Below, one piece after another: positions 25,453 to 54,386 of a stretch of 64,000 bases of DNA. Numbering within the stretch: position 1 is the first letter of the stretch; the number at the start of each line of letters is the position of its first letter. The notes beneath the pieces were generated by a model that saw only the letters and a program-made list of their open reading frames with translations, made no database searches and was not told where the DNA came from. A program made the translations under genes and the position numbers. Source of the DNA: Planctomycetota bacterium (GTDB lineage: Bacteria > Planctomycetota > SZUA-567 > H5-PLA8); NCBI GenBank assembly GCA_045863855.1, contig BTVV01000008.1:1-64000 (forward strand). The letters run 5' to 3'.

Positions 25453-25481
25453 TTGACTTCGCACCTGACGCGGGATTTACT
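25453..25481 (+). promoter_or_regulatory. Putative promoter of the leuA leader
   Basis: TTGACT-17 bp-TTTACT, 9 nt before the uORF ATG. Confidence 0.45.
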
Positions 25482-25490
25482 GTTCAATCT

Positions 25491-25577
25491 ATGAGTTACG
25501 CCACTACAGAAGCCGCTTCGGCGCAAGGGGGATTCAGCGTTCGCGGGCACTCCGCGAACGTGGTGCTCCCGGGCTAA
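25491..25577 (+). promoter_or_regulatory. Putative leuA leader peptide uORF (28 aa, ending NVVLPG*)
   Basis: Short ORF within a structured 5' region; single Leu codon CTC third from the stop; mirrored upstream of leuS. Confidence 0.5.
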
Positions 25578-25721
25578 CCCGCCTTCGCTGTCCCCGACTC
25601 CAGAATTCGCTAAACTGATGTCGTGCCGGCCGCTTGCGCATGGATTTTTATCCTGCGGGCCGCTTCGTACCCCACCGTGCATGGCGCGCTCCGGCGCGCG
25701 TTAAATAGGATGGTTACCTCG

Positions 25722-27353
25722 ATGAGCGCCAAGAAAGCCATTTCCAGCCGATTCAAGTCCGTACCCCAGGACCCCAACCGGATCATCATTTTCGACACGA
25801 CGCTCCGCGACGGCGAGCAGTCCCCTGGCGCGACGATGAACCAGGACGAGAAGATCCAGGTCGCGCGGGCGCTGTACCGCTTGAAGGTGGATGTGATCGA
25901 AGCCGGGTTTCCGATCGCCAGTCCGGGCGACCACGACGCGGTGAAGGCCGTTGCCGAGGTGCTCGACGAGAAGGATGCTCCGATCGTCTGCGGTCTGGCG
26001 CGCAGTCTCGAAAAGGATATTCAGTGCGCTGCCAGCGCGGTGAAGAACGCGCGACGGCCGCGCATTCACGTTTTCCTGGCCACGAGCGCCATTCACCGGC
26101 AGTTCAAGCTCAAGAAGGCGAAAGACGAGATCGTTCGGCAGGCCGTGCAAGCCGTGCAGTTCGCTCGGACGTTCGTGGACGACGTGGAGTTCAGCCCCGA
26201 AGACGCCAGCCGCACGGAGCCCGAATTCCTCTGCGAAGTTACGGAGGCCGTGATCGCCGCCGGAGCGACCACCGTCAACATTCCCGATACCGTCGGCTAC
26301 GCGGTGCCCGATCAGTTTGGCTCGGTGATCCGCACGCTGAAAGAAAAGGTCTCGAATATCGAACAGGCGGTGATCAGCGTGCACTGCCACAACGACCTGG
26401 GCTTGGCGGTCGCCAACAGTCTGGCCGGTGTGCGCAACGGCGCGCGGCAAGTCGAATGCACCATCAACGGAATCGGCGAGCGCGCCGGCAACGCGGCGCT
26501 CGAGGAACTGATCATGGCGCTGCGCACGCGCGGCGACTTTTACCCGTACCAGACCGGGATCGACACCAAGCGGCTGCTCCCCAGCAGCAAGCTGGTCAGC
26601 GCCGTCACGGGGATCAACGTTCAGCGCAATAAGGCCGTCGTCGGCGAGAATGCGTTCGCGCACGAGTCGGGCATTCACCAGGACGGCTTCCTGAAAGAAC
26701 GCACGACGTACGAGATCATGCGTCCGGAGGATATCGGGCTGGAACAGTCCAAACTGGTTTTGGGCAAGCACAGCGGCAAGCATGCGTTTAAGAACCGTCT
26801 GAAAGAGCTGGGCTACGAGCTGGACGAAAAGCAGCTCGTCGACGCTTTCGAACGCTTCAAGGTGCTGTGCGACAAGAAGAAGAACATCTACGATGCCGAC
26901 CTGATCGCGCTGGTCGAAGATCAGTTGGTGGCCGCCGCGCCGGTGTGGGAACTGGAGTTGCTTCAGGTGGCCGCAGGCAACAAGGCGGTGCCCACGGCCA
27001 CGGTGATCCTGCGCAAGGATCAAGCGACCTACCAGGACGCCGCCATAGGGGACGGCCCGATCGACGCGCTCACGAAGGCCATCGACCGCATTACGGGAGT
27101 CTCGGGCAAGATTCTCGACTTCCAGGTTCACGCGGTCAGCGAAGGGCGCGAGGCGCAGGGCGAAGTGGACATCAAGTGCGACTTCGACGGCGAGGTGATC
27201 TACGGCCGCGGTTTCAGCACGGATATCATCGAGGCTTCGGCAAAGGCGTATTTGAACGCGGTCTGCCGCGCGGTTGCGAAGAGCGATGCGGCGGTCACGC
27301 CCGCGGAGCGTCCGGGGCATGCGCAGCCCAAGCCGGTCGGTGCGACGCCGTAA
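25722..27353 (+). CDS. leuA: 2-isopropylmalate synthase
   Basis: [45 protein letters not shown] regulatory domain; start 25710 or 25722. Confidence 0.97.
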
Positions 27354-51222: not shown

Positions 51223-53949
51223 TTAGCCTTTGATCACGATATTGACCAGGCGGCCCTTCACGACGATCACTTTGACGATCGTCTTGCCGGCCAGTTCCTT
51301 GGCCACGGCCTCTTGCGCGGCCTGCTTCATCGCGTCTTCGCCAGCGTCGGCGGGCACGCTCGTTTTACCGCGCACTTTCCCGTTGACTTGAATCGCCAGT
51401 TCCAGGCTCGCGTCCTTGGTCTGTGCCTCGTCGAACGCCGGCCACGGCTCGAAGGCCAAGACTTTTTCGTGGCCCAATCGCCGCCACAATTCTTCGGCGA
51501 TATGCGGTGCGAACGGCGCCAGAATCAAGACGAAGCGTTCGGCTTGCGATTTCCCCAGCTTCTCGGGCGCCTTCAGGCATTCGTTGACGAAGATCATCAT
51601 CGCGCTGATGGCGGTATTGAACGCCATCCGCTCCAGGTCGTCGCCGACCTTCTTGATGGTTTTGTGCAGCGCGCGCTCCAATTCCGCGTCGCCGGTCTGG
51701 CCGTTCGACAGATTGGCGCGCAAGGCCCCCGCATTCGACTTGCTTTCGTCGTCCTCGACCACCAGCCGCCACGAACGCTGCAGGAAGCGAAAGACGCCCG
51801 GCACGTCGCGGGGGTTCCATGGCTTCGAGCCGTCCAGCGGACCGATGAACATTTCGTACAGGCGCAGCGTGTCCGCGCCGTACTCGTTTACTACGTCATC
51901 CGGATTAACGACGTTTTTCAGGCTTTTGGACATCTTGGCGGTAATCTGCTTCGCCGGTTGCCCCGTCGCCTTTACGACGAACCCTTGATCGCGTTCTTCT
52001 ACCTCGTCGTTGGGAATCAAGCGTCCCGCTTCATCCTGATACGCGAACGCTGTAATCAAGCCCTGATTGAACAAGCGCTGGAAGGGTTCCTTGGTGTGCA
52101 CGTGCCCCAAGTCGTACAGCACCTTATGCCAGAATCGCGCGTACAGCAGATGCAGCACCGCGTGCTCCGCGCCGCCGACGTACAGATCGACCGGCATCCA
52201 GTAATTCTCGACCTCCGGGCGCCAGCCCTTCCGGTCGTTTTTCGCGTCCAAATAGCGCAGGTAATACCAGCACGAACCCGCCCACTGCGGCATCGTATTG
52301 GTCTCGCGCCGCGCCTTCTTTTCGTTCGGCTTCAGCGCCTCGTCTGCGCGCCAGGGGCGCGTGCGCACGACCTGCCCTTGCGCGTCCACCTCGGCGGCGA
52401 CGTACAGCCAGTCCTTGGCTTTGCCCAAAGGCGGGTCGAACGTCCCGGTGGGCTTGAAGTCATCCATCTCCGGCAGCCGCAGCGGCAATTCGCTTTCGGG
52501 AATTAACGTGTGCGAACCGTCTTCGAAATGCAGCACCGGAAACGGTTCGCCCCAGTAGCGCTGCCGGCTGAACAGCCAGTCGCGCAGGCGGTAATTGATC
52601 GTGCCCTTGCCTTGCCCGCGGCTTTCCAGCCACTGCGTGATCTTCTTCTTGGCCTCTGGCGTGTGCAGGCCCTCGATAGTCGGGCTGTTGAAGGCCACGC
52701 CATCGTCGGTGAAGAAGTCCGCGAACTCTTGCGGTGCCTTGCGGAAATGCGCGCGCAGCGTCTCCACGGCGTTTGAATCCATGCTTTTCGGTGCATTGGT
52801 TTTTAGCCAACCGTCCGCCGGCATCACCACCGGCACGATCGGCAGCTTGTATTGAATCGCGAACTCCGCGTCGCGCGTATCGTGGGCCGGCACCGCCATG
52901 ATCGCGCCGGTCCCGTAGCCCGTCAGCACATAATCGGCGATCCAGATCGGAATCTTTGCCTTCGGATCGGACTTCTCGAAGACCGGATTGAACGCGTAGG
53001 CGCCGGTAAATACGCCCGTCTTTTCTTTGGCCAATTCGGTGCGCGCCAGATCCGATTTTTGGGCCGCCGCGCGCACGTAGGTATCCACCGCCGCCTTCTG
53101 GCCCGGCGTCGTCAGCTTCGACACCAGCGGATGTTCCGGCGCCAGAACCATGTAGGTCGCGCCGTACAGCGTGTCGGGCCGAGTCGTAAAGACGCGGATC
53201 GAACCTTCCTTCGAGTCCGCAATCTCGAAATCCACCTCCGCACCTTCGCTTTTCCCGATCCAGTTGCGCTGCTGAATCTTGATCGACTCGGGCCAGTCCA
53301 GCGCTTCCAGATCGGTCAGCAATCGTTCGGCGTATTCGGTGATCTTCAACATCCACTGCTTCATCGGGCGGCGCACGCACGGATGGTCGCCGCGCTCGCT
53401 GCGCCCGTCGATCACCTCCTCGTTCGCCAGCACCGTGCCCAGCGCTTCGCACCACCACACCGGTACTTCGGCCAGATACGCCAGGCCCTTCTTGTACAAC
53501 TGCATGAAGATCCATTGCGTCCAGCGGTAGTACTCGGGGTCCGTCGTATCCACTTCGCGGTCCCAGTCGTAGGAGAACCCCAGCGCCTGGATCTGCCGCT
53601 TCATGTTCGAGATGTTGCTTTGCGTCGTGATGCGCGGGTGCACGCCTGTCTGCACCGCGTACTGTTCGGCCGGCAGCCCGTACGCGTCCCAGCCCATCGG
53701 ATGCAGAACCTGAAAGCCCTTCATGCGCTTGTAGCGCGCCAGGATATCCGTCGCGGTGTAGCCTTCCGGATGTCCGACATGCAGCCCCGCGCCGCTGGGG
53801 TAGGGGAACATATCCAGAATGTAATACTTCGGCTTTTTCGGATCGAATCCGGCGTCGCCGGGATTGGGCGTCTTAAACGTCCTCTGCGAGGCCCATACTT
53901 GCTGCCAATGGGGCTCGATCTCGCGGGGCGTGTACTTGGCGGAAGGCAT
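51223..53949 (-). CDS. leuS: Leucine--tRNA ligase
   Basis: [48 protein letters not shown]. Confidence 0.98.
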
Positions 53950-54067
53950 GGCACATCCTCATTCGGCGCACGAAACCAGTGCACGCTCGCGCCCATCCCG
54001 ATGGGGGATCGCACGCGTGCCGCACACGAAGTAAGCGGAGCACTCTACCGAAAAGAGCGGACAGCGG

Positions 54068-54172
54068 CTAGCGCGAGAGGCTCGCGCTCGCGCGGAACGC
54101 TGCGCGAGCACGGTGGGCTCCCTTCGAGGATGCGCCCATCGAGCGGCGCTTGGAGGTGGGTGCGTGACTCAT
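54068..54172 (-). promoter_or_regulatory. Putative leuS leader peptide uORF (34 aa, ending SASLSR*)
   Basis: Starts 6 nt after a TTGACA-17-TTGAGT promoter (54207-54179); single Leu codon CTC third from the stop; contains an 11-nt complement of the leuS SD region. Confidence 0.5.
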
Positions 54173-54310: not shown

Positions 54311-54386
54311 GGGGCTGTGGCGCAGCTGGGAGCGCGCCTGCATGGCATGCAGGAGGTCAGGGGTTCGAACCCCCTCAGCTCCACCA
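54311..54386 (+). tRNA. tRNA-Ala(GGC)
   Basis: GGGGCTG acceptor, anticodon stem CCTGC/GCAGG with loop ATGGCAT, GGTTCGAAC, CAGCTCC-A-CCA; G3:U70. Confidence 0.97.

Follow-up and report, generated by a model that had tools for sequence, protein, structure and literature searches.

The leuA and leuS leaders

The window, i.e. the 64,000-nt stretch of planctomycete DNA analyzed here, contains leuA (2-isopropylmalate synthase; positions 25722..27353, plus strand) and leuS (leucine-tRNA ligase; 51223..53949, minus strand), both of which pass the NCBIfam cut-offs (TIGR00973, 724 bits against 598.7, and TIGR00396, 1101 bits against 548, respectively). Each of these genes, which are presumed to be regulated, is preceded on its own strand by a short open reading frame (uORF), of 28 codons for leuA (25491..25577; peptide MSYATTEAASAQGGFSVRGHSANVVLPG) and of 34 codons for leuS (54068..54172; peptide MSHAPTSKRRSMGASSKGAHRARAAFRASASLSR). 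The leuA uORF includes an internal SD-like motif identified by alignment, GGGGG (25527..25531; GGAGG in most relatives), a conserved GC hairpin that shows covariation (25537..25561, arms 25537-46 and 25552-61) and a Leu codon, CTC (25566..25568), taken as the sensor codon from the homologous position in relatives. On the minus strand, the leuS uORF includes an SD-like GGAG (54117..54121, from the alignment), a hairpin recognized by sequence and covariation (54084..54111, arms 54111-54102 and 54093-54084) and a sensor codon that is also CTC (54077..54079). As the initial annotation had it, the two uORFs contain a single Leu codon each, third before the stop, with a hairpin directly 5' of it; the hairpin has 10 bp in both leaders.

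Promoter-like hexamers with 17-nt spacers are predicted upstream of both uORFs (-35 TTGACT, 25453-58, and -10 TTTACT, 25476-81, plus strand, for leuA; -35 TTGACA, 54207-02, and -10 TTGAGT, 54184-79, minus strand, for leuS) and end 9 nt (leuA) and 6 nt (leuS) before the ATG, in line with the original description of these uORFs as nearly leaderless. The same is predicted for the uORF in general because a TTG hexamer is located 33-39 nt 5' of the uORF ATG in 27 of the 28 Leu-class leaders, compared with 7.3% of 147,107 genome ATGs. Neither of the two promoter-like sites scored in a consensus promoter scan, which misses such sites because the predicted -10 boxes of this lineage (leaders L001-L036) read T-(T/C)-N-A-N-T (TTTAAT, TCTATT, TTAAGT) and not TATAAT. 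RNA-library contigs from a 94-97% relative (2 studies) start at 25499, 25523 and 25528 and extend into leuA, with none upstream, which fits a leuA leader start near 25491; given that contigs cannot show starts and that there is no DNA control, these ends are not counted as evidence.

The common design of the leuA and leuS leaders, the central claim of the initial annotation, is real and far beyond chance: a covariance model that had both window leaders in its training set matches just these two sites at E<0.1 in the 6.9-Mb genome. A blastn comparison of the two leaders with their own genome produced short chance matches only and did not link them, and the minimum free energy of the whole leader is ordinary in both cases (z -0.37 for leuA and -1.76 for leuS). 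Over the window, tRNA is the sole Rfam match at the gathering score; a tRNA gene with the anticodon GGC (Ala, by inspection) lies at 54311-54383 on the plus strand, divergent from the leuS promoter. Neither T-box, leu leader or LEU nor any other Rfam family matches the leaders at the gathering score or at loose E-value thresholds (up to 10 and 5), and the spacers of leuA and leuS in the window contain no U-tailed terminator.

Conservation in the Leu class and the Val and Ile versions

In the Leu class, the parts follow in a fixed order: near-leaderless uORF, SD-like GGAG(G), GC hairpin of 8-10 bp, one Leu codon located 4-5 nt 3' of the stem, uORF stop 1-3 codons further, and a C-rich, G-poor tail. 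Among the 17 genomes of the family, 16 have a visible region upstream of leuA, and 15 of these 16 carry the consensus GGAGG-N6-CGCYCGCGG-loop-CCGCGRGCG-N5-CTN; the element is also found 5' of leuS at 5 of the 12 loci with sufficient upstream DNA. The alignment of 29 distinct sequences shows positions G2, G3 and G5 of the SD-like pentamer to be invariant (29/29) and the 9-bp stem to be paired in 100% of the cells, with two-sided changes at 4 pairs and a covariation score reached by none of 500 shuffles, counts that overstate conservation because the kin are not independent. In every one of the 21 leaders checked, an upstream ATG shares its frame with both the GGAG motif and the Leu codon. The sensor codon in the 28 Leu leaders is CTC (17), CTT (6) or CTG (5); exactly one Leu codon is present in 13 of these uORFs, two to four in 15, and more than four in none. 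The GAAAUAGAC loop, which presumably resembles the tRNA-Leu D-arm, is fixed at the nucleotide level in most leuA leaders, and the reading of this loop as a D-arm mimic was dropped because it is replaced in the window's own genus.

Alignment with relatives, the check suggested by the initial annotation, thus bears out the uORF, the position of the Leu codon and the hairpin, and lends nothing to the smaller motifs or to the switch proposed there. The shared word CAGCGTTC falls in the stem in leuA and in the loop in leuS and looks like chance; CAGCGTTC, CGCTGTCC and CGTGCA(C)TGG each occur in 2 of the 28 Leu-class leaders, namely the window's own two, which is again chance-like; the GTGC..GGC block, in one rendering as a pattern, matched 1 of the 28; and none of the spacer blocks tested is conserved. 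The switch called for the G-run at 25527-25531 to pair alternatively with CTCCC or with the downstream CGCTGTCCCC; the downstream partner is not conserved, and the G-run corresponds to the SD-like GGAGG of the relatives, which is kept in the valS leaders though it is unable to pair with the Val codon there.

Searches that leave the sensor codon out recover the same element. A 37-nt pattern without the Leu codon matched 12 sites in the GTDB collection, all in Planctomycetota MAGs, 11 before leuA and one before leuS. In metagenomes, the pattern matched 15 sites, and Leu occupies +14 in 13 of the 14 evaluable ones; three of the matches duplicate GTDB leaders, and among the remaining, non-identical ones Leu is found in 10 of 11. 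The exception, on the minus strand of L077 (145-195), has a perfect Leu-class hairpin and a uORF ending in GAPRPR before the stop, with no Leu at the sensor position; its downstream gene is off the contig, and the leader may have decayed or may serve a different amino acid. Across 62 genomes of the class, strong matches to the covariance model lie solely at leuA and leuS, and the model gave an out-of-sample match in another family (G018) with Leu at +14. In this leader (L105), the element lies 357 nt before leuA, the spacer has extra hairpins and the tail is not C-rich.

The design is not confined to leucine. In the window's own genome, valS is preceded by a leader of the same layout whose sensor codon is a Val codon, and in the leader of cimA (called by TIGR00977), a gene with a role in isoleucine synthesis, ATT (Ile) occupies this place. 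The Val-codon layout is present at 11 of the 16 evaluable valS loci of the family; the cimA element is found in 14 of the 17 family genomes and in none of 45 others, and the cimA leader of genome G015, which is out-of-sample, has Ile at the sensor position. When the own genome was searched for the layout with codon and gene ignored, by a scan in whose design cimA played no part, the search returned 8 rows at 6 loci, i.e. leuA, leuS, valS, cimA and two unrelated ones. Four leuA leaders of family f5, examined by eye, combine GGAG, an unrelated hairpin of 45-50 nt, a CTG that is equally far from GGAG once the hairpin is looped out, and a C-rich tail; in these leaders (L018, L019, L021 and L023), the uORF start overlaps the end of the upstream gene and the hairpin is larger and bulged. 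The Leu covariance model does not detect the Val, Ile and f5 leaders, so that their kinship rests on the layout and on a GGAGGTTTCACCGC-type prefix seen in some Leu and Ile leaders.

The pattern of variation argues for translation through the hairpin: loops change in steps of three, with lengths of 8, 11, 14, 26 and 53 nt in valS (frame kept in 10 of 10 leaders) and 10, 13 and 16 nt in cimA (12 of 12), and the Leu and Val sensor codons vary synonymously. The peptide encoded around GGAG is GG, xE or K/R/G-G, depending on the class, and since peptides differ between the classes, selection acts on the RNA; a conserved arrest peptide was rejected for the same reason and because compensatory changes in the stem alter residues, e.g. 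RGR to HGR and RDR. The SD-like motif itself varies as GGAGG, AAAGG and AGAGG, with variation in the fashion of an SD before cimA, and GGAG is invariant in the 10 valS leaders, where the Val codon cannot pair with it. The initial reading of a Leu sensor in which a ribosome reads a single codon accordingly has strong support from the conservation, from the preserved frame and from valS and cimA, where the codon is exchanged, and its scope widens from leucine to the branched-chain family.

In the other classes of the phylum, none of the 27 leuA leaders inspected has the element and roughly half are classical Leu-run leaders, and the distant family f4 has classical attenuators. A match to the Val pattern in genome G040 sits inside a long coding frame and hence is a chance one. 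Inspection by eye of the ilvB leader and nine other synthetase regions in the own genome yielded no such element, with some starts mis-called and a "lysS" locus that resembled pheS. Leaders of other types occur in the same genomes. At 9 of the 15 family loci, the ileS leader (L140, G000:C63, in the own genome; L137-L150) has a short uORF ending in S-P-I-(T/I/S), usually with one Ile codon, followed by a hairpin and a U-tailed intrinsic terminator; it has no Rfam match and looks like a classical attenuator with a single codon. The own aspS leader (L226, G000:C16), where a hairpin and a C-rich tail accompany a leaderless uORF that contains Asp/Asn codons (MERLTFPLYADANRDNAAPRAAI), is a possible Asp/Asn sensor. 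Upstream of thrS (G000:C27, near L158) there is a long leader with GC hairpins and a 49-codon ORF.

Proposed sensing, ribosome pausing and output

On comparison of the sequences, the anatomy of the element, the keeping of the frame, the swap of the sensor codon and the C-rich tail are established, and it is highly probable that the uORF senses an amino acid through a single codon at a fixed position. The explanation that best covers all of these features, an attenuator with one codon read by the ribosome, in which Rho termination would be off when the cognate amino acid is scarce, has about an even chance of being right. The ribosome would start at or near the 5' end of the RNA and translate through the hairpin. 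With charged tRNA plentiful, it would clear the sensor codon, stop 1-3 codons on and depart, whereupon the C-rich tract would be open to Rho and transcription would end within the spacer, roughly 90-190 nt long. With charged tRNA scarce, the ribosome would pause while the sensor codon occupies its A site; the hairpin, whose 3' end is 4-5 nt before this codon, would refold at the exit side and loop out. GGAG(G) would then be separated from the P-site codon by 6-8 nt, as is usual for an SD, and pairing with the 16S tail would lengthen the one-codon pause. The ribosome held in this manner would cover the stop together with the first part of the C-rich tract, Rho loading would be blocked, and the gene would be transcribed.

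Within this scheme, a role of the SD clamp as the pause amplifier is conceivable, at somewhat below even chances, and a clamp encoded in the mRNA, where the refolding hairpin would build a split SD behind an elongating ribosome and lock it at a single hungry codon in a Rho-coupled manner, is put forward more tentatively still. Pausing of elongating ribosomes at internal SD sequences is disputed. In the folded hairpin, the SD-like pentamer is located 9-11 nt from the sensor codon (8 in one alternative drawing of a cimA stem), a spacing that holds across hairpins of about 19 to 71 nt; the looped-out distance, 8-11 nt, depends on how the stem base is drawn. For comparison, SD-to-start distances of 5-8 nt are the commonest in the own genome. 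The 16S tail, GAUCACCUCCUUU, is canonical in the relatives G002 and G003, which were used because no 16S was found in the own genome (G000), where a match to the anti-SD pattern sits in coding sequence; some of the cimA SD-like motifs pair only weakly with this tail (-3.2 to -5.7 kcal/mol). Because few of the predicted P-site codons could serve as a start (GTG in 9 of 50 leaders, ATG in none), initiation at the looped-out SD was rejected and the geometry would act in elongation. The CUN codon of the Leu class is itself a pairing partner of GAG (A-U or G-U in 29/29, G-C in 29/29), so that a plain extended stem explains part of the conservation. Ribosomes tolerate a hairpin between the SD and the AUG in the T4 genes 38 and 25 (PMC3014915), and upstream hairpins are described to refold beside the E site of 70S ribosomes (PMC6321510). 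In the leaders, 1-2 nt of the E-site codon belong to the base of the stem, and the refolding would therefore need an empty E site.

As for the output, Rho-dependent termination is the most likely route, and a probable one, because the tails have more C than G, terminator-like hairpins are few and rho is present. In the 40 nt after the uORF stop, the mean of C minus G is +6.5, with a value above zero in 48 of 50 non-redundant leaders, compared with 0.0 for controls that follow ordinary stops (n=1634) and -0.5 for upstream regions (n=1729); the bias peaks in the first 20 nt 3' of the stop. These statistics exclude near-duplicates (L002, L032, L078, L080, L131 and L170), exact repeats (L061-L072, L074, L076 and L087), L077 (no Leu) and L085 (truncated). 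The putative rut tract of leuA (25578..25617, plus strand) has 17 C and 7 G per 40 nt, which places it in the top 3.5% of the control regions; the weaker tract of leuS (54028..54067, minus strand) has 14 C and 9 G, in the top 21% only. The C-richness suggests a rut site and is no proof of one, the leuS tail being just moderately C-rich. An intrinsic terminator as the output was rejected, given that terminator-like hairpins are found in the spacers of 3 of the 50 leaders (shuffled rate 3.8%), compared with 11 of 12 positive controls. The rho gene of the own genome (L189, G000:C31:38863-40098) lies within a 708-codon open frame, which suggests a long N-terminal extension. A precedent is available in tnaC and speFL, where a stalled ribosome shields the adjacent rut (PMC12360218).

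Four other explanations differ in how well they fit these observations. The best placed of them, itself unlikely, retains the same sensor and Rho and holds that the stalled ribosome leaves the G-rich 5' segment (GGAG and the 5' arm) free to bind the C-rich tract and mask the rut site; the hairpin would then be a pause or synchronizing hairpin for RNA polymerase, there would be no pairing between an SD and 16S, and the restructuring would be of the mgtA/corA type. The G-rich motif and the C/U-rich tail are indeed complementary in composition, individual leaders (L012 and L020) fold in this way, and restructuring that hides a rut is known (PMC12360218). However, when the 5' segment of the Leu class is paired with its own tail, the mean z is -0.37, with 6 of 28 leaders below -1.5, and the matched rank is 0.47, a weak test given that the shuffle keeps composition; moreover, the masking leaves unexplained why the looped-out distance from GGAG to the codon stays fixed when the hairpins range over ~19-71 nt.

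Less probable again is translational attenuation modeled on the mycobacterial poly-Cys leaderless sORFs or the LEU element, whereby the pyrimidine tail or the region of the sensor codon would sequester the SD of the gene and a stalled ribosome would free it. Folding with a ribosome footprint made the RBS easier to open by >0.5 kcal in 12 of 28 leaders and harder to open in 2 (mean 7.4 to 6.8), and for 11 of 50 leaders the pairing of the codon region with the RBS of the same leader ranked in the top decile (mean rank 0.40 over the 50), but the folding effect is small and unchanged with the ribosome at the stop, the spacers are variable (92-357 nt), and for the tail the RBS of the same leader is no better a partner than the RBS of other leaders (mean rank 0.56, z +0.26, top decile in 3 of 50). 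On the same matched-versus-mismatched duplex rank, SBS-style anti-SD pairing was rejected, and SD sequestration of the Ms5788A type, for which the folding effect is also weak, was not detected.

It is quite improbable that the uORF is incidental and the leader is an untranslated structured RNA that binds tRNA, in the manner of a T-box specifier, or a synthetase or other protein. C-ending codons, which predominate in T-box specifiers, do predominate here (CTC, GTC), and the GAAAUAGAC loop is constant in nucleotide sequence in most leuA leaders; yet the loop is replaced in the window's genus and ranges from 3 to 53 nt, every indel keeps the reading frame, the codons cross tRNA isoacceptor boxes (CTG in 5 of 28), Rfam yields neither a T-box nor another match, and the design is found before biosynthetic enzymes too. 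Frameshifting at a hungry codon that would carry ribosomes past the uORF stop to reach, or fuse with, the main gene is the least credible, as the main gene, counted from the codon, may lie in any of the three frames (0/1/2) and most of the +1 and -1 frames meet a stop long before they reach it, even though an upstream SD or hairpin stimulates a +1 shift at CUU-UGA (PMC6321510) and CTT TGA occurs in four leaders.

Comparison with known systems

Attenuators normally turn a shortage of tRNA into a long pause by means of a run of codons or an arrest peptide. The present family seems to manage with one codon and RNA geometry, a solution used four times in one genome with the codon matched to the gene. 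If this is true, the element would be a portable amino-acid sensor of roughly 60 nt; if the clamp is true as well, the sensor would be modular, with three nucleotides setting the specificity (Leu, Val or Ile) and neither a codon run nor an arrest peptide, and it would offer a compact natural test of the disputed question of whether internal SD sequences hold elongating ribosomes. A regulatory layer is thereby added for an uncultured lineage of Planctomycetota. The element was not found described in the literature searched, most subscription papers being outside reach; the main text of PMC11109978 mentions no Planctomycetes, leuA, leuS, valS or cimA, and its supplement, with uORF candidates from 50 genomes, might bear on novelty. 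Judged from sequence, this is a real, conserved and, as it seems, undescribed regulatory family that would act by ribosome-mediated attenuation, possibly with a new mechanism of pausing. Its mode of action would resemble that of a Rho attenuator of the tnaC type, with tRNA supply as the input, which is the input of classical leaders too.

The Serratia ilvGEDA operon has a classical attenuator with a single Leu codon. Classical leu/ilv attenuators share with the present leaders a uORF with cognate codons 5' of genes for branched-chain biosynthesis or synthetases; here, in contrast, there is no codon run and no U-tailed terminator, and the hairpin precedes the sensor codon. The LVVI leader of ilvB1 in Mtb is an example of the classical leader-peptide attenuator (PMC13236596). 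The LEU element of Actinobacteria, likewise, combines a uORF with one or more Leu codons and a conserved structure before leuA, with no terminator, and its Leu codons pair with a sequence of the SD type (PMC1262725). In that element, however, a Leu run pairs with the SD of leuA itself and a pseudoknot is added (PMC1262725), whereas the leaders described here lack a LEU-type Leu run, the one codon pairs, if at all, with the internal upstream GGAG, and Val and Ile versions exist. The mycobacterial poly-Cys sORFs are similar in being leaderless sensor uORFs about 100 nt before the gene, and differ in their run of 8-9 codons and in sequestering the downstream SD (10.1101/834739), a sequestration that is unsupported here.

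Two further parallels concern geometry and output, respectively. In the split ribosome-binding sites of the T4 genes 38 and 25, a looped-out hairpin brings the SD to working distance from a codon, at initiation on AUG (PMC3014915), whereas here the action is predicted to occur in elongation. In the tnaC and speFL Rho attenuators, a ribosome held at the end of the uORF shields an adjacent C-rich rut, with no intrinsic terminator (PMC12360218), and the features expected of this type, a C-rich, G-poor tract after the uORF stop and a rho gene, are found in the present case. Those systems rely on an arrest peptide, together with a free ligand present in the exit tunnel (PMC12360218); here, in contrast, the peptide is not conserved, a fixed SD-like motif and a hairpin precede the codon, and the signal appears to be the supply of charged tRNA at that one codon.
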